Source: Paludibacteraceae bacterium (GTDB lineage: Bacteria; Bacteroidota; Bacteroidia; Bacteroidales; Paludibacteraceae). Taken from it: a stretch of DNA of 58,239 nt. This document shows, piece by piece, positions 22,843-35,285 of this stretch. The DNA is taken from NCBI GenBank assembly GCA_024401515.1, contig JAKSKY010000001.1:1-58239 (forward strand). The letters run 5' to 3'. The notes beneath the pieces are model-generated. The model was not told where the DNA came from and did no database searches. It saw nothing but the letters and a program-made list of their open reading frames with translations. The first letter of the stretch is position 1, and the number at the start of each line of letters is the position of its first letter. The position numbers and the translations under genes were made by a program.

Positions 22843-23571
22843 ATGAAAACGAATGTAAAAGGCAAATGGGCCCTTGTTACAGGAGCTAACCGCGGAATCG
22901 GTTACCGTGTAACCAAATTCATGGCATCTCAAGGTTGTAATTTGATTCTACACAGCCGCAGTTTGGAGCACACCCAAAAGGTTTGCGAAGAGGTGAAGGC
23001 TATGGGTGTGGAGGCTTACTGCGTAGCAGCGGAACTTTCCAACCCAGTTGAGGTGGAGAAGATGATCCAAGAGATCAAGGCAAAGGGCACACAAGTGGAC
23101 CTATTGTTCAACAACGCGGCGGTACAAATCGCTTACCGCACTGAGTATTTCAAAACTCCAGTAGAGGACTACTCTACCAGTTTCCACATCAATACCATCG
23201 CTCCGATGATGTTGTGCTACGCTTTCGTCCCAGATATGATCAAGCGTGGATTCGGTCGTGTCATCAACACAACCAGCGGTATCAAGAACGAGCCACAACA
23301 AGCAGGCTACTCCGCAAGTAAAGCTGCCCTTGACAAGGTAACAACCGATTTGGCAGGCACTGTGGATGGAACAGATGTGATCATCAGCTTAGCTGATCCA
23401 GGATGGTGCAGAACCGATTTAGGAGGACCTAAGGCTCCTAACGATCCAGACTCCGCTATTCCAGGTATGGTACTAGGCGCTTTCGTCAACGACAAGAAGA
23501 GCGGTAGATTCTTCTCCGCGCAAGATTATGCGGGCTTGACGCTTGACGAGGCTTTAGCCAAACTGAAATAA
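22843..23571 (+). CDS. SDR-family oxidoreductase
   Basis: TGANRGIG cofactor motif, NNAA motif, and catalytic YxxxK (YSASK). Confidence 0.85.
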   Translation: MKTNVKGKWALVTGANRGIGYRVTKFMASQGCNLILHSRSLEHTQKVCEEVKAMGVEAYCVAAELSNPVEVEKMIQEIKAKGTQVDLLFNNAAVQIAYRTEYFKTPVEDYSTSFHINTIAPMMLCYAFVPDMIKRGFGRVINTTSGIKNEPQQAGYSASKAALDKVTTDLAGTVDGTDVIISLADPGWCRTDLGGPKAPNDPDSAIPGMVLGAFVNDKKSGRFFSAQDYAGLTLDEALAKLK

Positions 23572-23603: not shown

Positions 23604-23619
23604 AAAAGGCAGCCAATTC
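23604..23619. terminator. Left half of a host terminator hairpin split by the insertion
   Basis: aaaaggcag-c-caat pairs with attg-a-ctgcctttt at 29450..29463 once 23620..29447 is removed. Confidence 0.65.
23616..23619. repeat. Target-site duplication, left copy (ATTC)
   Basis: The same 4 nt abut the outer ends of both inverted repeats. Confidence 0.65.
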
Positions 23620-23644
23620 TGATATGAACCCCGAAAGTTAGACA
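23620..23644 (+). repeat. IRL (TGATATGAACCCCGAAAGTTAGACA)
   Basis: Matches the reverse complement of 29419..29443 (TGAGGTGACCCCGAAAAGTTGGACA) at about 21 positions, with two 1-nt indels. The CCCCnAAAGTTnGACA core is as I recall for IS150-group ends. Confidence 0.75.
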
Positions 23645-23660
23645 AAAAACTTTCGGGGTT
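23627..23660 (+). promoter_or_regulatory. Perfect 13-bp hairpin formed by IRL and an internal complement, 6 nt upstream of orfA
   Basis: AACCCCGAAAGTT, 8-nt loop, AACTTTCGGGGTT, then TATTTATG. Confidence 0.6.
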
Positions 23661-23665
23661 TATTT

Positions 23666-24199
23666 ATGACACAAAGAAAGAAACACTCGTATGCGGATAG
23701 ATTGAAATATATGCATATGCTTGAAGATGGATATTCCAATGGCTATATCCACAAACATTATGGCATAGGACATAGTTTATTGTCTGTGTTATGGAGACGA
23801 TATCAAAAAGAAGGTTGTGCTGTTCTGAAAAAGAAAACATCCACAAGGGCCACAGCAAAAATAAAACTCAAAGCGATCCTTGACTATGAGAAAAAACATT
23901 TACCTTTGGTGGATGTGATGTCGAAGTACGACATTAGCGAGAGTGCTCTATTAGCCTGGTGCCGGAAGTATCATTCAGGTGGCGTAGAGAGCCTTCGCAA
24001 GAAAGGAACTAAAGTCAGACCACCAGTTATGGGCAGACCAAAGAAAAAGACAGTAGAGGAAATGACTGAACTTGAGCGACTCCAAAAAGAGAACCAGGAG
24101 CTCAAAACAGAGATTGCCCTACTAAAAAAAGTGAGAGCCTTAGTAGAGGAAAGGAATGCCCGACTAAGAGAGATTGGGCACGGGCCATCGAAGAACTAA
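23666..24199 (+). CDS. IS3-family transposase OrfA (HTH plus leucine zipper)
   Basis: 177 aa. HTH regions, then GRPKKK ... ELERLQKENQELKTEIALLKKVRALVEE. The A AAA AAA slippery heptamer is in the correct frame. Confidence 0.85.
   Translation: MTQRKKHSYADRLKYMHMLEDGYSNGYIHKHYGIGHSLLSVLWRRYQKEGCAVLKKKTSTRATAKIKLKAILDYEKKHLPLVDVMSKYDISESALLAWCRKYHSGGVESLRKKGTKVRPPVMGRPKKKTVEEMTELERLQKENQELKTEIALLKKVRALVEERNARLREIGHGPSKN
24124..24130 (+). promoter_or_regulatory. Programmed -1 frameshift heptamer A AAA AAA
   Basis: The zero frame reads CTA AAA AAA GTG. The -1 frame continues into an OrfB-like sequence (..RAIEELRRGGH). Confidence 0.6.
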
Positions 24200-24222
24200 G
24201 GCGAGGAGGCCATCTTTATTAA
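24130..24222 (+). pseudogene. N-terminal stub of IS3 OrfB (about 30 codons, -1 frame)
   Basis: The -1 frame reads SESLSRGKECPTKRDWARAIEELRRGGHLY*. The typical IS3 OrfB N-terminus (..I.ELR..) is cut off before the DDE domain. Confidence 0.6.
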
Positions 24223-24299
24223 ATAATTCGACTCGTTTTTTTGAGTCTTATATAAAAGATTTTAAACTAAATTTAAACAATTTCTTAATCTTTTTATAT

Positions 24300-24680
24300 A
24301 TGAATACAGAAGAATCGCAAAATGTTGCAAATGTGAGTGCTGAACAATGGGCTGAGGCAAAAAAGATCGCACAGGATTTTATTGTGAATAAAAATGCCTC
24401 CGCACCTTGGACCATCAACAAATTGGTAGAGTGTGGATTTGAAAAAAGTGTCGCTGAATCAGTGGTTGAGTCTATCATGGTGCCAATTCTAAAGAAGAAG
24501 GCTGCCGATGAGGCTGCTAGTCAGGATTTGCTTTGGGGAGCTGTCGCCTTGTTTGGTGGAACAGGTCTTTTGATTGTGGAATTGATGTTCATGCCTAAAG
24601 TACATATCATTTTGTTCTTGGCGCCAGTATATGGTATCTACAGACTGATCAAGGGAATTTTTGGGAAAGTAAAGAAATAA
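24300..24680 (+). CDS. Small membrane protein (soluble N-domain plus two C-terminal TM helices), function unknown
   Basis: 126 aa from the ATG at 24300. TM segments LLWGAVALFGGTGLLIVELMF and VHIILFLAPVYGIYRLI. The track's upstream extension to 24174 runs into IS sequence. Confidence 0.5.
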   Translation: MNTEESQNVANVSAEQWAEAKKIAQDFIVNKNASAPWTINKLVECGFEKSVAESVVESIMVPILKKKAADEAASQDLLWGAVALFGGTGLLIVELMFMPKVHIILFLAPVYGIYRLIKGIFGKVKK

Positions 24681-25011
24681 GGTGATGTTGACGTTGAGCG
24701 AAGTCTAATGCACGGAGGTTCAACATATACGGAATTATCAGACTTAAATCCACATCGATTGGTCCTTTTGTCGTAATTATCCGATAAAGGGGAATCCGAA
24801 CAATCTCTAACAAACATGAGAATACTATTTTTATTTCTTTCGATTATAGTCTCGCAAGCAATATTCTCCCAGGTTAAAGAACTATATCCAACCAAGGTGG
24901 AGAAACTTCCTTTTACAGCACACACTAAGGTTCAATATTGAAATGTGAATACCAAGGGATGGTTTGGGTAGATTTCATCCATCAATTTTGAAAACTAAAA
25001 AAGTAAAACTT

Positions 25012-26577
25012 ATGAATAGGATAAAGCGTTTTTTACTGGCAATATGCGGACTGGTTGCTGTTGCTAATACCAGCGCGAAGGAGTATGAGGTGAGAACTAC
25101 CTGTCCGGAAAGTGTCAAGTTGGGAGAATCTTTCAAGATTGCGTACCAGCTTGCAGTTGATAGTTTGCAGAATAAAGCTACCATCGGCAAGGTTAATGTG
25201 GAGAATGGTCAGATCACATACGGGCCTAAGATGGCCACCTCTACGAACGTTAGTGTGATTGGTGGCAAGTTTTCAAAGAATACTACCTATACATTCAATT
25301 TAGCCATACAAGCCAATGACAAGGATGTTGTCATCGAGCCTGTCGATTTTGATGTTTTGCTTTCAGATTCGGTGGTTGGCCATGCCAAGTCAGAAAGACT
25401 TGTGGTAAAGGTTGATTCTGTAGGAGAAGTAAAAAGGGAACAAATAATTGAATACGACAGCATCAAACCAGATGACATATTTGTCAAATGGGAATGCAGT
25501 AGAGACAAAATTACGTTAGGCGATACCATACAATGCGTATGCAATTTATATTATGATGTTTCCGGTTTGGATGTAGTTCATTTTGAAATGAGCAATTTCG
25601 ATGATTGTCTAGTTCTTTGTGATACCATGGGAAATTCGGATGAGAGAACAAAAAAGGTTAATTTAAATGGCCGGGAATATGACTGTTATACTTTGCTCCG
25701 GTATGTTTTGAAACCATTGAGGACAGGTACATTCAGCGTTGATGGCGGGGAAGCGACATTGGCAGTGCGTGTCAGGGAAAAACCCAAGAAAAACGCTATC
25801 TTTCCGGATGTTTTTTTTACAGTGTACCATAAAAAAGTGGAATATCAAACGAGGGTGGCTGGAGCCTCATTTAAAGTGAAGGGCAAGACAAAGCCAATCA
25901 AGAGTCAGCGGGTAAAAGGGACGGATGATGTCTATCTCTTGTGTAAGATGTCCCTATCTATGAATACTTTGGATTTCACGCCTGACCGTAAAGGTGCAGT
26001 TGCCAATTTTGCGGAGTCATGGTTCAAGAAGGTAGAGCACAGTGGATATGCGACATTCGCATCTTGTATCGGGACAATTTCCAAACCGAACGAGAAGCCA
26101 AGCAAAATAGACACCTCAATTAGTTGCGATCGTCCGGGTACCGCAACAGGAGACGCATTGCTCAAGTTGTCAGAGTCTGTGGAGAAGTGTAAGGATATTA
26201 TTATCATTACAGACGGTCCAAGTAATACAGGGCGTTTCTCTCTAAATACAGCCTTGGAGATTGTCCGCAGCAAGGGCATACGTGTCAGCTTTGTCTATGT
26301 GAATTCAGGTACAGATAAGGTTGATTACATGATAGATGGTAAAAAGGAGAGCTTGGGTAATTATACCCTCAAAGAGAAGGATATCAACAAGATACGAGAG
26401 GCAGTTGAGTCCACAGGCGGTATATTCGTTGAGGCTAAGAGTAATGATGAATTGCTTGGACTCTTACCACAGTTGAAGGCGTTGGTCTCTTCAAAGAGGG
26501 AATGTCCGAAAGCCGATGGTTGTCTTTATGACGCAAAACTGGTGAAGGAGGGTCTGGAGCTCTTGAAGGAGGAGTGA
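25012..26577 (+). CDS. Secreted BatD-like N-region fused to a vWA-like domain with a non-canonical MIDAS
   Basis: Signal peptide MNRIKRFLLAICGLVAVANTSA. BatD-like segments (VKLGESFKIAYQL; ITLGDTIQCVCNLYY ... LRYVLKPLRTGTF). vWA landmarks DVYLLCKMSLSM, GTATGDAL and IIIITDGPSN. Confidence 0.55.
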   Translation: MNRIKRFLLAICGLVAVANTSAKEYEVRTTCPESVKLGESFKIAYQLAVDSLQNKATIGKVNVENGQITYGPKMATSTNVSVIGGKFSKNTTYTFNLAIQANDKDVVIEPVDFDVLLSDSVVGHAKSERLVVKVDSVGEVKREQIIEYDSIKPDDIFVKWECSRDKITLGDTIQCVCNLYYDVSGLDVVHFEMSNFDDCLVLCDTMGNSDERTKKVNLNGREYDCYTLLRYVLKPLRTGTFSVDGGEATLAVRVREKPKKNAIFPDVFFTVYHKKVEYQTRVAGASFKVKGKTKPIKSQRVKGTDDVYLLCKMSLSMNTLDFTPDRKGAVANFAESWFKKVEHSGYATFASCIGTISKPNEKPSKIDTSISCDRPGTATGDALLKLSESVEKCKDIIIITDGPSNTGRFSLNTALEIVRSKGIRVSFVYVNSGTDKVDYMIDGKKESLGNYTLKEKDINKIREAVESTGGIFVEAKSNDELLGLLPQLKALVSSKRECPKADGCLYDAKLVKEGLELLKEE

Positions 26578-26668
26578 TGCGTGGTCTTTTGCGGGCGGCC
26601 ATAAGGGCCTCATTAAGAATAGAAAAACGATGCGCAAGGATAGCCGAGTTTATTAAGTAAAGAACGGA

Positions 26669-27436
26669 ATGAAACGAATAATTATCAATGCGGACGACTT
26701 TGGTCTTCATAAGGAGGGCGATCTTCATATTGCTCGCTTTATGGAGAGAGGATTTGTTTCAAGCACTTCGGTGGTGGCCAATGGGACGGATTTAGAGAGT
26801 GTGATTCAATGGGTCAAGTCGTTCCCCGATATTTCATATGGGATACATCTGAATCTCACGGATGGTGCGCCATTGACTCAAAGCCAATTGCTTTTGGATA
26901 TGGGTTTTTTCAAGGAGATCAATGGGAAAGTGCTATTCAATGGTAGACAATTCGCACGCGAATGGTTGACGAAAGAAGAGCGAAAGGATATCTTTACGGA
27001 GTTGGTGGCGCAAGTTAGTCGGTTGCGAGATTTAGGAATCGAATTATCTCATATGGATAGCCATCATCATATACATACCGCATACTTCATGTATCCTATA
27101 TTGCCGGATTTGTGCGATAAGGTAAAACTTTATAAGGTGCGGAACATAAGGAATTGTTATAGTCGTTTTTCGTTGACGCAAAAAGTCAGAAAACTGTGGG
27201 GAATGGGTCTCCGTATCCAAAATCGGAAGATTCAATTCCCTGATATGTTCTGTGATTTGATGACATATGCACATGCGTTGGAAAAGAATGCCAATGCCTT
27301 TTCTGCTGATGAGGTGGTGGAGTTGGAGTGTCATCCAGGCAGTGTAAAATGTAGATTGAAGGAGGAACCATTGTTTGAGAGAGTCCAGGTGGAGCAATGG
27401 AGCCAACGACGTCTTATTTCATACAAAGAACTGTGA
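26669..27436 (+). CDS. YdjC/ChbG-family carbohydrate deacetylase
   Basis: N-terminal IINADDFG motif, GIHLNLTDG, and a later SHMDSHHHIH segment. Length of 255 aa is typical. Confidence 0.8.
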   Translation: MKRIIINADDFGLHKEGDLHIARFMERGFVSSTSVVANGTDLESVIQWVKSFPDISYGIHLNLTDGAPLTQSQLLLDMGFFKEINGKVLFNGRQFAREWLTKEERKDIFTELVAQVSRLRDLGIELSHMDSHHHIHTAYFMYPILPDLCDKVKLYKVRNIRNCYSRFSLTQKVRKLWGMGLRIQNRKIQFPDMFCDLMTYAHALEKNANAFSADEVVELECHPGSVKCRLKEEPLFERVQVEQWSQRRLISYKEL

Positions 27437-27566
27437 TAGAGGTTGTAAATAAATATTACATACAAAGATTATATGCCCAAGAACTGAAATAGAATGATTG
27501 GTGACATGCGGTGTTTTGATTCGACTATTCAAGGAATAATATGCCTTTAAAACTCAAAGTAAAACA

Positions 27567-27977
27567 ATGAAAAAGATTGTGTTTGGTATATTTGTATTGT
27601 TGCTCTTTGTGGGAGGATATTGGTTAAAAGTCTGTACTTCAGAAACAATACAAATAAGTGAGAATACAGAGTTAAAATCTAAAGTTAATAGTAATTATAT
27701 GGAGCAGAATTTATTTTTGAAAGCTGTTGAACAGGATGAAATCATAGCATATTTTTCAGGTGAAGGGGAATATTCTATACATATTCCACGTACTCCTCAT
27801 TGGGGATATGAGGATAATGGAGAACATTTTTATGCTGAATCCTTTTCGGGAATGGAGTCTTGTGTCGTCAATAATTTAATAAGTGAAGAAAAATTGTATG
27901 ATGAATTGGATCGAAGTTTTACGAGTTGTTTAAGAAACAATCCTACAATAGATGTATTTTTTGATGTCATATATTAA
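27567..27977 (+). CDS. Hypothetical N-terminally membrane-anchored or secreted protein
   Basis: 136 aa. Hydrophobic N-terminus KKIVFGIFVLLLFVGGYWL. No recognisable domain. A+T-rich. Confidence 0.45.
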   Translation: MKKIVFGIFVLLLFVGGYWLKVCTSETIQISENTELKSKVNSNYMEQNLFLKAVEQDEIIAYFSGEGEYSIHIPRTPHWGYEDNGEHFYAESFSGMESCVVNNLISEEKLYDELDRSFTSCLRNNPTIDVFFDVIY

Positions 27978-28210
27978 ACACGATCTATCTAATTCACAAA
28001 AATGATGAAGATAGCTTCAAAAAGGAGTGGGTCTATTCCGATCATCTTATAGAATCGTTATTGGAAGAAAAAGCAACAAGAAAAAAAGGATTTAGAAAAA
28101 ATCCAAGAAATACAACGTTTCCTGAATTGGTTTAATGAGAATCAGATGAATGGGAAACTTGGCGAGATTTGTCAATAGCATGGGCGTAATACAATTTAAA
28201 TTTAAGAATT

Positions 28211-28609
28211 ATGAAAAGCATTGTAACAACTATTATCTCTCTTTTATTAATGGTTCCGGTATTTGCGCAAAATAGTTCAACTACTTCTGAATTAGTTCCT
28301 CTATTCGTTGTCAAAACTAGTGTCGAAGGAGGTATGCACGAAATTATTGGTCAAACTGGCAAAGATATTTTTCATATCAATAAAGAGACAGGAGAAGTTA
28401 AGTTATTATATTATGAAAAATACATCAATCTCAGTCGTCAGGAATCAAGCGAAGATGTCGCTGAGGCTGGTAAGATTAATTATCAGTTAGTGATATCTTC
28501 CAACGAAGTTTATCTTATGAACATTAATACTGGCGTTATTTGGTATTTGAAGAGCGCTGGCCTTACACACTCCAAAGATAAGTTCATTCTGATTACAGAA
28601 AAGAAATGA
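28211..28609 (+). CDS. Hypothetical secreted protein
   Basis: 132 aa. Signal peptide MKSIVTTIISLLLMVPVFAQ. The stop overlaps the next start (ATGA). Confidence 0.5.
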   Translation: MKSIVTTIISLLLMVPVFAQNSSTTSELVPLFVVKTSVEGGMHEIIGQTGKDIFHINKETGEVKLLYYEKYINLSRQESSEDVAEAGKINYQLVISSNEVYLMNINTGVIWYLKSAGLTHSKDKFILITEKK

Positions 28610-29367
28610 TTAAGGATTTTGTTGACACATATCTTGGGGGGAATATTGGGGACTTAAAAAATTTTGATTTCTCTCAACTACAAAGAGATAAGATCTATGG
28701 TTGTCCCGGTAGACCATTCGATTGCGATGACACAAATCTTGCTCGTTCCATCTATGTGCTTGTCTATCAGCAAGCTTTCCCAGATCTTTCTATAGAATCT
28801 CTTGAAGATGGCAAGTACAGGGGAGATACCATGAACTCCTTCAGGACTTTGATGGGGAAGTTTGTAGATGAACATGCTGCTTGTGAGGATGTGTATGACA
28901 TACCAGCTGACTTAGCACCCAAAATTCATCGTTTCATACATACCTATCATACCATTGGCAATTTTGTGCCTCTCCCTAACATTAAGACTACAAGGAATCT
29001 TAATATGATGCGAAGTATTCTTTGGCATGATTATTTTGACAGATTTTTGATTGAGGTAAAAAATTACCTGAACGAAGAGTTGTATCACGAGAAGTTCACT
29101 CCTTTGATGGAGGCCAACCACTTTGCCTTTGGGCAATATAAGGGTACGGAGAATGGATTTGCACGTTTAATTCATCTTCTTATGCTCGATGGTTATTTAG
29201 ACGATGATGGTTCCATTCATAAGTTCCAGGGGTTAACACTTCGTGGGAAATGGCCGAACGAGCTCTATTTCAATGAGGTTGAGCACTACATTGATTTTTG
29301 TACGTCATTGATAGAGGATCGAGCAGAGAAGATTATCGGGATTCTGAAGGATAAAATGCATAATTAG
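28606..29367 (+). CDS. Hypothetical cytoplasmic protein, no recognisable domain
   Basis: 253 aa with no signal peptide. Translationally coupled to the upstream ORF. Its stop lies at the junction with the IS OrfB C-terminal stub. Confidence 0.5.
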   Translation: MIKDFVDTYLGGNIGDLKNFDFSQLQRDKIYGCPGRPFDCDDTNLARSIYVLVYQQAFPDLSIESLEDGKYRGDTMNSFRTLMGKFVDEHAACEDVYDIPADLAPKIHRFIHTYHTIGNFVPLPNIKTTRNLNMMRSILWHDYFDRFLIEVKNYLNEELYHEKFTPLMEANHFAFGQYKGTENGFARLIHLLMLDGYLDDDGSIHKFQGLTLRGKWPNELYFNEVEHYIDFCTSLIEDRAEKIIGILKDKMHN

Positions 29368-29404
29368 CCCGGTACAATACCGAGCCCATTCTCTTATTAA
29401 TTAA
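29366..29404 (+). pseudogene. C-terminal stub of IS3 OrfB
   Basis: Reads SPVQYRAHSLIN*. (S/T)PVQYR is the characteristic C-terminal motif of IS3-family DDE transposases. The stop is 14 nt before IRR. Confidence 0.6.
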
Positions 29405-29418
29405 CTTATTTATTAATC

Positions 29419-29443
29419 TGTCCAACTTTTCGGGGTCACCTCA
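29419..29443 (-). repeat. IRR (plus strand TGTCCAACTTTTCGGGGTCACCTCA)
   Basis: Inverted copy of IRL; see 23620..23644. Confidence 0.75.
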
Positions 29444-29447
29444 ATTC
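29444..29447. repeat. Target-site duplication, right copy (ATTC)
   Basis: Identical to 23616..23619. Confidence 0.65.
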
Positions 29448-29463
29448 TCATTGACTGCCTTTT
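29448..29463. terminator. Right half of the split host terminator
   Basis: tc-attg-a-ctgcctttt pairs with 23604..23618 in the reconstructed empty site. It lies 25 nt past the stop of the 29488..30258 gene. Confidence 0.65.
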
Positions 29464-29487: not shown

Positions 29488-30258
29488 TTACTTTTCCCCG
29501 TCCTTACGCTCCTTGAACTTGATCGCATCGAACAATGCGGTAACCACCACACCGAACATTTGGTTGTTTGAGCGTTGGAAAACATCCGATTTCTTGTTGT
29601 TATACAAATCACCGAATCCATAAGAATAACGGAACTCTGCCAATAGATGGAAACGACTACCGATCATCACATCGAAACCGCCTCCGCCGCACAATCCATA
29701 ATCCATGGATTTATAATCCTCCATGAAACGGGGATCATCCAACTTAAAGGCCTCCTTACGGAGATCATTTTCGGGAATGTTCCACTTCACATCATGGTAA
29801 TTCATCAAGAACCTTAACTCAGGGCCCAAATTGACGATAAACTTCAACCTACGTTGTCCGAAGTAGATATGCGCTAATATCGGCACATCGATGTAGTCCA
29901 ACCTACGACCCAAAGAGACATCCTGAAGGTCGATACCATTCACCATCGCGACGCCCAAATCCTCATGGAATTTCTCCTTCCAGCCCGCTTGCGCATAATT
30001 CGCCTCCAATTGCACACCAAAATGGTTACGATGAACATATCGGGCCGTAAAACCCCAACGGGTAGCCATATCAAACGATTGATCTCCTAATTCAAAGAGG
30101 CGATCCGTCGTATTATGCAAGAAGCTAACTTTCGAGAAATTCAAACCTCCGTTGACACCAAATGAAACAGATTGTTCAAAGTCCCTACGTAACAACTGTC
30201 CGTAGGTGACCAAACAAGCTACAAGAGAGAATGTTAGGGTAAGAAACAATCTACGCAT
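29488..30258 (-). CDS. Outer-membrane beta-barrel protein (PorT/OmpA-beta-barrel-like)
   Basis: Signal peptide, alternating-hydrophobic beta-strand pattern, and an aromatic-rich C-terminal region. Confidence 0.6.
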   Translation of the reverse strand: MRRLFLTLTFSLVACLVTYGQLLRRDFEQSVSFGVNGGLNFSKVSFLHNTTDRLFELGDQSFDMATRWGFTARYVHRNHFGVQLEANYAQAGWKEKFHEDLGVAMVNGIDLQDVSLGRRLDYIDVPILAHIYFGQRRLKFIVNLGPELRFLMNYHDVKWNIPENDLRKEAFKLDDPRFMEDYKSMDYGLCGGGGFDVMIGSRFHLLAEFRYSYGFGDLYNNKKSDVFQRSNNQMFGVVVTALFDAIKFKERKDGEK

Positions 30259-33990: not shown

Positions 33991-34018
33991 GAGGGTGTAT
34001 CAAAATTGATATGCCCTC
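33991..34018. terminator. Hairpin between convergent genes
   Basis: 13-bp stem gagggtgtatcaa/ttgatatgccctc. It has two G.U pairs in the plus-strand RNA and a 2-nt loop. The T-run is on the minus-strand side only. Confidence 0.5.
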
Positions 34019-34023
34019 ATCTA

Positions 34024-34635
34024 TCAAAAACCTTCATAAATATCTTGTCTGGTATCCTTTTTTACATTTACTAATCTGGAATGTACTTCTTCAATAGCGT
34101 ATCTGGACCATCGACCGAAATAGTCACGTTTATAAGATATATCCACATAACCAGTACTGCTAGACAATCTTATCTTAGTTATCTTTTTTCTTTGTATTAG
34201 TTGAATATCCGACATTGACAGTTTAAACACTGAAATGTAATAGTTCATTTTGGGTGATGGCATAGTAGTGATTGTATTGCCAGACAAATAACTATGGGTA
34301 GGCTGTTCAACTTCACTAACTGTAACATTATTAGCTATAAGACTAACAATGTCTCCGCTTTCACTTTTCAATAACAATTCTGCATTCGAAGGTATTGACG
34401 AATAAGATGAAATAACTAATGCGTATGTGGTATCATTATTTGTCGCAAATGCCTTAATTCTAAAGTAATACTTTGTGCCATAAGCTCCATTACTCAAATA
34501 AAAGGTCCTAGAACTTGACATCACTTGCCGTGTTCCATCACTCGTAAAACCATCGTAATCTATAATCTGAGATGATTGCGCCAATGCAATCACTGAACAA
34601 GATAATAACCAAAGAATAGCTACAATTTTTTTCAT
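34024..34635 (-). CDS. Secreted hypothetical protein; single-copy paralog of the repeat unit in 1712..3370
   Basis: I prefer the start at MKKIVAILWLLSCSVIALAQ. Motifs AELLLKSESGDIV and KKITKIRLSSS align with the repeat motifs of the 552-aa protein. Confidence 0.55.
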   Translation of the reverse strand: MKKIVAILWLLSCSVIALAQSSQIIDYDGFTSDGTRQVMSSSRTFYLSNGAYGTKYYFRIKAFATNNDTTYALVISSYSSIPSNAELLLKSESGDIVSLIANNVTVSEVEQPTHSYLSGNTITTMPSPKMNYYISVFKLSMSDIQLIQRKKITKIRLSSSTGYVDISYKRDYFGRWSRYAIEEVHSRLVNVKKDTRQDIYEGF

Positions 34636-34736
34636 AAGTAACAATTGAAAACACATTGCAAATGTATGATTAATTAAGAATTATTGTCATATTCTACTCC
34701 ATTTTTTCGTACGCTTCCAATTCTAACGTTATTTCC

Positions 34737-34823
34737 CTATTTCTTCATAATCAAACAACTCTTTTCAGCCACCTTCAACAAATAAAGTCCTGGTATGAAT
34801 GTTCTCATGTCGATGTATATAAA
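34737..34823 (-). pseudogene. Orphan tail of a T9SS type-A C-terminal sorting domain
   Basis: Reads FIYIDMRTFIPGLYLLKVAEKSCLIMKK*, the canonical last strands of a Por CTD. Two stop codons precede it and no upstream body exists. Confidence 0.45.
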
Positions 34824-34826
34824 TTA

Positions 34827-35285
34827 TTAACAGACTAGCAAAGCCAATAGAATGGCACCCAAAACATAGGTGGCGATATTTACCTTCAAAGTAGCGCTAC
34901 CGATTCGCTTCGTATGATACGATTTATGTAAGAATAAATAATTGATACCAAACTCAATAATTAAGGTAAGTAGGAAGGCAACCAAATAATAGACGATTAA
35001 CCACATCAGTTGTCCATGGTGATGGATATTAACCTCATGCTTACTTACCCACGGGAACCATACAACAAGCCACCAACCACCATTTAAGGCCATAGAAATA
35101 ATGATACCCGTAATTCCACTAACTACATTACCGGTTATCTGTGACCAATATATAAGTTTATTAAAATTAGCTTTCGCTAAACATTTCGACATAAGTATAG
35201 CCTCACATAGAATGACGAAAAGCATAAAAAGCCAACCATAGGGGGTAAAGGCAAAAATTCCAAAAGAGACATCCAACAGCACCAT
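34827..35285 (-). CDS. Hypothetical polytopic membrane protein
   Basis: 152 aa with 4 to 5 hydrophobic helices. No recognisable family. Confidence 0.45.
   Translation of the reverse strand: MVLLDVSFGIFAFTPYGWLFMLFVILCEAILMSKCLAKANFNKLIYWSQITGNVVSGITGIIISMALNGGWWLVVWFPWVSKHEVNIHHHGQLMWLIVYYLVAFLLTLIIEFGINYLFLHKSYHTKRIGSATLKVNIATYVLGAILLALLVC

Follow-up and report, generated by a model that had tools for sequence, protein, structure and literature searches.

The locus considered here raises the question of how six open reading frames (ORFs) on one strand came to lie between two fragments of a single transposase gene, amid housekeeping genes of a Paludibacteraceae bacterium (DNA polymerase III delta, AP endonuclease and oxaloacetate decarboxylase among them). 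The window analysed is the short-read contig JAKSKY010000001.1 of assembly GCA_024401515.1, 58,239 nt long, whose path threads through repeats of 598 and 82 bp. At 23620-29443 it contains a 5,824-bp derivative of an IS3-family insertion sequence (IS), within which the six ORFs, designated P1 to P6, are found. The derivative retains both inverted repeats (IRs), the gene for OrfA and the A7G frameshift site, and the 766-bp DDE core of its OrfB gene has been swapped for 5,148 bp of cargo. The region is probably a non-autonomous IS3 derivative resembling the mobile insertion cassettes (MICs), with passengers of patchwork origin that have hitch-hiked within it. Coordinates of all features are collected in Table 1.

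The IS3 shell and its autonomous parent

The ends of the element conform to what is expected of the IS3 family, in which imperfect terminal IRs are accompanied by a target duplication of 3-4 bp. The IR pair, TGATATGA...CACCTCA, matches at approximately 21 of 26 positions and has 5'-TG...CA-3' ends, and the duplication is ATTC. OrfA, the helix-turn-helix (HTH) protein of the family, matches HTH_28 and, over its N-terminal part, NCBIfam transpos_IS3, and it is coupled to a -1 frameshift motif of the A7G type, the role of which in -1 frameshifting is established IS3 biology. Of the DDE (rve) OrfB that an autonomous member would carry, only about 30 codons at the 5' end and 12 at the 3' end persist. 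Both breakpoints are clean, with microhomology of at most 3-4 nt; the junction k-mers are GGCCATCTTTATTAAATAATTCGAC and GCATAATTAGCCCGGTACAATACC, and the right junction lies in the TAG stop of P6.

The autonomous parent was found by an exact-sequence look-up of OrfA, which returned seven contigs with an identical 177-aa OrfA, one of them from SRR17543914 of the same run series as the contigs bearing the cargo. In the parent, OrfB is intact, comprising 269 aa with HTH_21 and rve domains. Parent nucleotides 1-599 correspond to positions 23620-24217 of the window at 99.5% nucleotide identity and nucleotides 1366-1449 to positions 29362-29445 at 97.6%. The parent with identical OrfA occurs in other assemblies, and no copy of it lies in the 58-kb window. 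More distant relatives were gathered by a scan for OrfA across 185,579 species genomes, which yielded 80 loci. Where enough sequence follows OrfA to allow a judgement, most of these are ordinary IS3 elements of 1.45 kb with an OrfB of about 300 aa, and in blastn comparisons with these 80 loci the matches of the window were restricted to 23620-24214 and 29362-29446. A first-pass annotation, made from the letters of the window alone, had proposed two OrfB stubs with the cargo of a mobile element between them, and both proposals are borne out, IS homology being confined to 23620-24217 and 29362-29445. It had missed the intact IRs, the 4-bp duplication and the hairpin target described below, as well as the fact that the arms are those of one IS rather than two.

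The closest OrfA relative in reference genomes (72% protein identity; L004, 1749-3402) is also interrupted, at a different point near the end of OrfA, after which come unrelated DNA and a NERD-domain ORF cut short by the contig end. This locus may represent another derivative without OrfB, or simply a remnant.

Table 1. Features of the IS3 derivative, its target and its cargo (window coordinates)
Feature	Position	Strand	Remarks
Left hairpin arm GGCAGCCAAT	23608..23617	.	One half of the terminator hairpin used as target; SDR and OMP genes converge on it
Left target duplication ATTC	23616..23619	.	4-bp repeat
Left inverted repeat (IRL)	23620..23645	+	TGATATGAACCCCGAAAGTTAGACAA; start identical in parent IS and about 80 relatives; aligned to IRR
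IS3-family OrfA, 177 aa, HTH	23666..24199	+	100% identical to OrfA of the autonomous parent IS
A7G slippery motif, -1 frameshift OrfA to OrfAB	24124..24131	+	Motif found by sequence
OrfB 5' stub, -1 frame, ...EELRRGGHLY(stop)	24130..24222	+	About 30 codons; parent homology stops at 24217
Cargo, 5,148 bp	24218..29365	+	Absent from all 80 related IS loci
P1, 126 aa, small membrane orphan	24300..24680	+	Soluble N-terminus, two C-terminal transmembrane (TM) helices (hydropathy)
41-aa ORF MRILFLFLSIIVSQAIFSQ...	24816..24941	+	Signal-peptide-like start; in the 331-nt P1-P2 spacer
P2, 521 aa, secreted	25012..26577	+	BatD-like beta-sandwich domains and BatB-like VWA domain (Pfam, fold)
Capsule/O-antigen scrap, 911 bp	26607..27517	+	89% nucleotide identity to L109 exactly over this stretch
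P3, 255 aa, YdjC/ChbG-family deacetylase	26669..27436	+	Motifs NADDFG, H60, DSHHH present
Decayed stump of the capsule gene following ydjC in L109	27433..27492	+	TGG to TAG, stop after 19 codons
Low-GC segment, 558 bp	27551..28108	+	Missing from sibling copy L002
P4, 136 aa, N-terminally anchored orphan	27567..27977	+	Known only from this lineage; single-member cluster
P5, 132 aa, secreted orphan	28211..28609	+	Signal peptide; stop overlaps P6 start (ATGA)
P6, 253 aa, cytoplasmic, DUF6994 family	28606..29367	+	No hydrophobic segment; stop straddles the right junction
G6 run, about codon 11 of P6	28636..28641	+	G5 in L002, frame shifted
OrfB 3' stub SPVQYRAHSLIN(stop)	29366..29404	+	Last 12 OrfB codons
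Right inverted repeat (IRR)	29418..29443	-	Ends ...GGGGTCACCTCA
Right target duplication ATTC	29444..29447	.	4-bp repeat
Right hairpin arm ATTGACTGCC	29450..29459	.	Other half of the same terminator hairpin

Insertion at a terminator hairpin

The element splits a hairpin, GGCAGCCAAT/ATTGACTGCC, which has an A-run ahead of it and a T-run after it and which separates two convergent genes, one for a short-chain dehydrogenase/reductase (SDR, 22843-23571) and the other for an outer-membrane protein (OMP, 29488-30258). When the empty site is reconstructed it folds at -14.4 kcal/mol, with a z of -5.2 relative to shuffled sequences. In a syntenic relative, a metagenome contig (L111) whose SDR protein is 90% identical, the SDR gene, the hairpin and the OMP gene adjoin one another and no IS is present. 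The target duplication, the split hairpin and the IS-free syntenic site therefore mark the 5.8-kb unit as foreign to its site. The empty site is known solely from this relative, which is 77% identical, and exact-match searches with the proteins encoded on either side (SDR and OMP) brought up nothing beyond short contigs from the same sample, which end in the IS arms.

Seven full-length relatives (L028-L032, L034 and L016), subjected to the same reconstruction, form hairpins with folding energies between -14 and -24 kcal/mol (z -6 to -9) and with the insertion at the apex, and five of the seven are flanked by 3-bp duplications, L034 and L016 lacking a clean one. Strong hairpins are thus found at eight of eight reconstructed target sites of this Bacteroidales clade of IS3 elements (z -5 to -9). 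Judging from these eight sites, the clade appears to be specific for the apex of hairpins resembling intrinsic terminators.

A patchwork cargo

The composition of the cargo changes in steps. The window as a whole has 42.8% G+C and its 35 host ORFs average 44.0% (sd 2.8), and the cargo runs at 40.9% over 24218-26606, 41.2% over 26607-27517, 30.5% over 27518-28108 and 37.1% over 28109-29365; among the cargo genes, P4 (z -4.9) and P5 (z -3.7) alone depart clearly from the host. By composition and homology, the cargo reads as a mosaic of at least four segments, namely P1 with P2, a capsule-locus scrap with P3, P4, and P5 with P6. The first-pass annotation had called the block compositionally mosaic and had supposed at least two layers of acquisition; the mosaic stands, with the number of segments raised to at least four, but the contrast it drew with a flank of about 52% G+C was too strong, this value being a local peak.

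The P3 segment is, to judge from its homology and gene content, a detached fragment of a polysaccharide locus. Two proteins come closest to P3, at 87% and 60% amino acid identity, and both are encoded in capsule/O-antigen loci in which the gene order is UDP-glucose dehydrogenase, Wzx, ATP-grasp, Wzy, a family 4 glycosyltransferase (GT4), YdjC, a gene of unknown function and GT4. Aligned with the first of these loci (L109), the 911-bp scrap takes in 62 nt from the GT4 gene's 3' end, ydjC in its entirety and 81 nt from the gene that follows; in this last stump the homology to L109 is lost beyond the stop. P3 itself belongs to the Pfam family YdjC (PF04794), scoring 129.2 bits against a cut-off of 29.7 (E 3e-37), and its NADDFG, GIH and DSHHHIH motifs align with those of 7vi8, a solved chitooligosaccharide deacetylase. 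It is probably still an active sugar deacetylase. An identity with ChbG of the chb operon was rejected, P3 reaching 110.5 bits against the NCBIfam ChbG equivalog, for which the cut-off is 227, and its nearest homologues lying in capsular polysaccharide loci, not in chb operons. P3 thus resembles the YdjC/ChbG proteins of Bacteroidales capsule loci, being 87% identical to one encoded among GT4s, Wzy and Wzx, but unlike these it is an isolated fragment stripped of the whole pathway.

The P4 segment can be set apart by comparison with sibling copies of the cargo. A contig from another sample (L002), 99% identical to the window, is without 27551-28108 and with it the P4 gene, and typical sibling contigs, of 4,583-4,585 bp, equally represent the cargo minus P4 and are interrupted at the IS arms. 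A patchwork origin is shown for the P3 and P4 segments at least. The 41-aa ORF in the P1-P2 spacer may be the 5' fragment of another captured gene. No match to P1, P4 or P5 was found in Pfam or NCBIfam.

The first-pass annotation had placed six same-strand ORFs here, including a P1 with two TM helices, a YdjC-family protein and an anchored P4, and had reported no genes for transposition, integration or resistance among them and no published operon, defence system or resistance cassette of this composition. The ORFs are confirmed, and domain and PADLOC scans of the cargo ORFs gave no match to a transposase, integrase, resistance or defence protein; nothing published matched the block. Specifically, PADLOC-DB v2, searched with OrfA and P1 to P6 at E <= 0.1, returned zero matches, PHROG and Rfam scans of the element found nothing, and nothing was found when the cargo was compared with phage and plasmid collections in DNA and protein searches or when P1, P4 and P5 were used to scan IMG/VR. 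The element contains no instance of the strict Bacteroidetes promoter pattern TTTG-N17-23-TAnnTTTG, and a sigma-70 scan of it did not rise above shuffled sequences.

P2 and the possibility of a surface module

The largest cargo protein, P2, was expected from the first-pass annotation to be secreted and to resemble BatD and von Willebrand factor A (VWA) proteins, and this description fits. Its signal peptide is short (MNRIKRFLLAICGLVAVANTSA before the cut, KE after it), corresponding to a helix at residues 2-18 of the model. It matches Pfam BatD at 29.9 bits (cut-off 24.1), and its VWA match in Pfam, which is weak, is confirmed by fold: the AlphaFold model (pLDDT 80) consists of beta-sandwich domains followed by a VWA domain that superposes on the BatB structures 3ibs (E 1.7e-9) and 4jdu (E 9e-8). 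A functional VWA domain has a metal-ion-dependent adhesion site (MIDAS) made up of DxSxS and a downstream Thr and Asp. In P2 the first residue of this site, Asp312 by position (25945-25947), is replaced by Lys to give KMSLS, whereas Asp stands there in at least 90% of the family; a TDG is present. P2 can be inferred to be an adhesin-like periplasmic or surface protein with a degenerate metal site.

Relatives of P2 are few. A word-seeded search of 5.8 billion proteins recovered only P2 itself and one relative at 40% identity, and a profile search of 1.84 billion representatives pointed to a sparse family of proteins of about 530 aa, some six of them below E 1e-60, together with many half-matches to BatD or VWA proteins. 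Among 17 aligned members of the family, BatD was detected in 13 and VWA_2 in seven. A scan of JGI metagenomes with the family alignment found nothing, and the same was true of sequence searches of the PDB with P2 and P6. Like the Bat proteins BatB and BatD, P2 has an N-terminal BatD match and a C-terminal VWA domain that superposes on BatB. Unlike them it is a single secreted fusion with no TM anchors and with Lys in place of the MIDAS Asp, and unlike the Bat system it has no MoxR, DUF58, BatA, BatC or BatE partners; a Pfam scan of ten upstream ORFs and the immediate flanking genes found none that is MoxR- or DUF58-like. The Bat aerotolerance operon was rejected as an identity for this locus, its partner genes not having been found among the ORFs scanned and only the BatD-like and VWA domains, fused in P2, being present.

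One reading, raised as a possibility in the first-pass annotation, is that the cargo forms a single envelope or surface-modification module. All of it, or a stable core made up of P1, P2, P3 and P5, would then be a coherent unit spread by the IS, and its membrane protein, its secreted VWA/BatD adhesin-like protein and its deacetylase would act jointly on the cell surface. Such a module seems unlikely. It would accord with a compact arrangement on one strand without an internal plus-strand terminator in the cargo, with the export or membrane signals that hydropathy confirms in four of the six proteins, as had been noted at first pass, and with the derivation of P3 from polysaccharide biosynthesis loci. 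P3, however, arrived as a torn fragment with stumps of a glycosyltransferase gene and of the next gene attached, which is not how a module would be built, and a YdjC protein without transferases, flippase or polymerase has no obvious substrate pathway. The 40% relative of P2 stands alone behind a terminator, adjoining a convergent DEAD helicase and lacking P1 and YdjC neighbours, and no two cargo homologues were co-located in the 190 loci fetched, those of P2, P3 and P6 being scattered through unrelated contexts and never side by side. Scatter of homologues was one of the outcomes by which, according to the first-pass annotation, the module would be refuted.

Sibling copies bear on the module in both directions. 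In its favour, P1, P2 and P5 are full length in all variants recovered (7/7, 13/13 and 10/10, with 7.1%, 4.6% and 6.8% of sites variable, respectively), and the variation in P2 has its hot spot at residues 199-217, a surface loop that is of low confidence in the model. Against it, Lys occupies the first MIDAS position in 13/13 P2 variants, and the comparison of the window with L002 gives three non-synonymous and no synonymous changes in P1 and seven and three in P2, a dN/dS of about 0.9 for the two genes combined (10 versus 3). In P3 the changes are two non-synonymous and three synonymous, a dN/dS of about 0.17, and in P6 one non-synonymous with a 1-nt deletion in the G6 run; all these counts are too few for a firm test. 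Damage of the sort that the first-pass annotation had named as telling against a functional unit is also seen: P4 is absent from the one sibling copy that was aligned (L002), one of ten P3 variants is truncated and the other nine are full length (2.7% of sites variable), and four of 14 P6 variants are disrupted at the N-terminus, with 10 of 14 full length (4.0% of sites variable).

P5, P6 and the DUF6994 family

The last pair of cargo genes poses a separate question, as the first-pass annotation had considered a conflict module alongside an envelope one. P6 scores 22.8 bits against Pfam DUF6994 (PF22507), below the cut-off of 27, and is 35-40% identical over its full length to proteins that carry PF22507; many of its 85 homologues do so. 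All 13 family-invariant residues are present, the model has a pLDDT of 96, and P6 ends where the family ends, the median C-terminal extension among homologues being 0. P6 is probably an active enzyme. DUF6994 has been described by the Pfam curators as possessing the beta-beta-alpha-metal core common to type IV restriction enzymes, with two invariant Asp residues and without conservation of the catalytic His of HNH enzymes (PMC11701544).

A DUF6994 protein also occurs in an uncultured Prevotella lineage (187 contigs; L092-L099, 3456-8801), in which a conserved operon encodes two GmrSD_N proteins of 644 and 869 aa followed by a DUF6994 protein of 266 aa and adjoins genes for RelE, a UvrD/DUF2726 helicase, RhuM and VapE in a defence island. 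This operon may be a split type IV restriction system. The family link between P6 and this operon is the sole surviving hint of a conflict function in the cargo.

On these grounds P6, alone or with P5, could be an IS-borne conflict or defence gene encoding an HNH-like nuclease akin to the nuclease end of GmrSD or BrxU and possibly switched on and off by slippage in the G6 tract. The odds of this are judged to be low. The family membership of P6, the type IV-restriction-like fold predicted for DUF6994, its position as third gene of an operon in a defence island of a widespread Prevotella lineage, the intact invariant residues, the confident model, the overlap of the P5 stop with the P6 start and the occurrence of P6 frameshift variants at or near the G6 run all speak for it, as does a fold search with P6 in which the only biologically sensible matches were BrxU and two GmrSD/DUF262 proteins. 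That search, however, found no significant match among PDB or viral structures, BrxU reaching E 1.0, probability 0.28 and TM 0.30, and PADLOC is without a match. P6 shares its DUF6994 character with the split operons, and the Pfam curators relate this family to the HNH-like nuclease end of GmrSD and BrxU, but neither P6 nor its neighbours contain a DUF262/GmrSD_N partner. An identity as a GmrSD/BrxU type IV enzyme, which calls for an N-terminal DUF262 and a C-terminal HNH-like DUF1524 nuclease, was rejected on the lack of DUF262 and the non-significant BrxU match. The closer homologues of P6 (54-64%) are solitary genes, found downstream of an aldo-keto reductase or a phosphoglucomutase gene or where a contig stops, in surroundings that are metabolic or of unknown function, and none has a homologue of P5 as its neighbour; the signal peptide of P5 makes it an odd partner for a cytoplasmic nuclease. 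The N-terminal changes of P6 could reflect decay or slipped-strand switching, and disruption in four of 14 variants suits the former as well as the latter.

Proposed mobility of the cassette and points against it

Under the preferred reading, that of a MIC-like IS3 derivative with hitch-hiking passengers, the cassette would be unable to move alone. OrfAB from a co-resident full-length parent would mobilise it in trans, by the copy-out/paste-in route of IS3 elements, into the loop of a terminator hairpin. The pieces of cargo would have been joined by illegitimate recombination, and the genes within them would be hitch-hikers without a joint function.

Several observations weigh against this reading. 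Evidence for mobility of the cargo form is indirect, one insertion site being known and all sibling contigs ending at the arms, and the left junction (24217/24218) is known from the window alone, the right one from L002 as well. Mis-threading of the assembly is possible, in which case the parent IS would occupy this site and the copy with the cargo would lie elsewhere, and gene conversion by which a resident parent IS acquired the cargo from another copy would look no different, without any transposition of the cassette. As to the passengers, P1, P2, P5 and most copies of P3 are intact, P6 keeps its invariant residues, and the overlap of P5 and P6 looks like translational coupling; some of the cargo may accordingly serve a selected function. 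At about 1% divergence, the integrity of ORFs and dN/dS are weak evidence either way.

An extension of the possible selection on the cargo, which we regard as unlikely, would make the cassette a thriving gene shuttle, mobilised in trans among gut Bacteroidales, for which the loops of terminators provide a neutral safe harbour and whose spread is owed to selection on part of the cargo. The selected part would be the variable P2 with P1, acting as a surface factor or one that masks phage receptors, or P5-P6, acting as a slippage-switched DUF6994 nuclease in defence, and OrfA would have been kept to damp the transposition of the competing parent IS.

The opposite position, that there is no mobile unit at this site, either through mis-threading of the contig or through acquisition of the cargo by a resident parent IS via homologous recombination with a cargo-bearing copy at another place, is improbable. 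The near-identity of the arms to a multi-copy IS makes it conceivable, public assemblies of the same material break exactly at these arms, and the duplication and hairpin are proof of no more than the insertion of an IS with such ends. The NCBI contig nevertheless covers the whole element with unique flanks of 23 kb and 29 kb, and the right junction occurs independently in L002, which comes from a different sample. The repeat-bounded sibling contigs correspond to the cargo minus P4, and even under this alternative the cargo still lies between IS arms somewhere in the population. A composite transposon and a fragment of a prophage or integrative and conjugative element (ICE) were dismissed, the former on the finding of a single IS's left and right arms with no second OrfA or IR pair and the latter on the lack of such genes and the housekeeping flanks.

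Relation to known elements

MICs such as MIC231 of Bacillus cereus, which is derived from IS231 (De Palmenaer et al. 2004, cited in PMC3129680 and PMC3281130), provide the nearest comparison. MICs have the ends of a known IS around passenger genes, no functional transposase and a target duplication, all of which apply here, OrfA having been kept without being catalytic. They rely for movement on the transposase of an intact cognate IS present in the population, and a like dependence is proposed for the present element. Compared with MIC231, which derives from the IS4 family, the element is IS3-derived, keeps OrfA and the frameshift site, carries a larger (5.1 kb, six ORFs) and visibly patchwork cargo, and is a candidate for trans-mobilisation. 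Transporter ISs (tISs), such as members of the IS1595 family with passenger genes (Siguier et al. 2009, cited in PMC3129680), are likewise IS-sized with passengers between their IRs but keep their transposase and are autonomous, unlike the present element with its deleted DDE domain. A tIS was rejected as an identity for it, a functional transposase of its own being required and the OrfB core being deleted.

With regard to the target, IS1397 and ISKpn1, also of the IS3 family, insert into repetitive extragenic palindromic (REP)/bacterial interspersed mosaic element (BIME) palindromes (PMC1525189). The Bacteroidales clade resembles them in IS3-family insertion in the loop of extragenic palindromes and differs in that its eight sites are individual intrinsic-terminator-like hairpins with no repeated REP family.

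The locus offers a clean, dated example of a plain IS becoming a gene vehicle, with parent and derivative in hand, breakpoints placed to the base and one passenger piece that can be followed back to a capsule locus and still carries remnants of the genes beside it. The locus bears on the movement of accessory genes in gut Bacteroidales without plasmids or ICEs, and it is of relevance to annotation in that cassettes of this kind break short-read assemblies at their arms. No new defence or envelope system is revealed, and experiments are likely to be worthwhile only for the BatD/VWA fusion family and the DUF6994 protein.

Further observations

Just upstream of P1, a 9-bp indel (TTAATCTTT, 24285-24293) differs among sibling copies. 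The public contigs L001 and L002 both begin about 30 nt ahead of it, which suggests that the two alleles occur together in each sample and that this interrupts the assembly graph here. Outside the element, a second low-GC stretch is found at 34000-35200 (31-36% G+C), where the ORF at 34024-34656 has, at 33%, the lowest G+C content of the 35 host ORFs.

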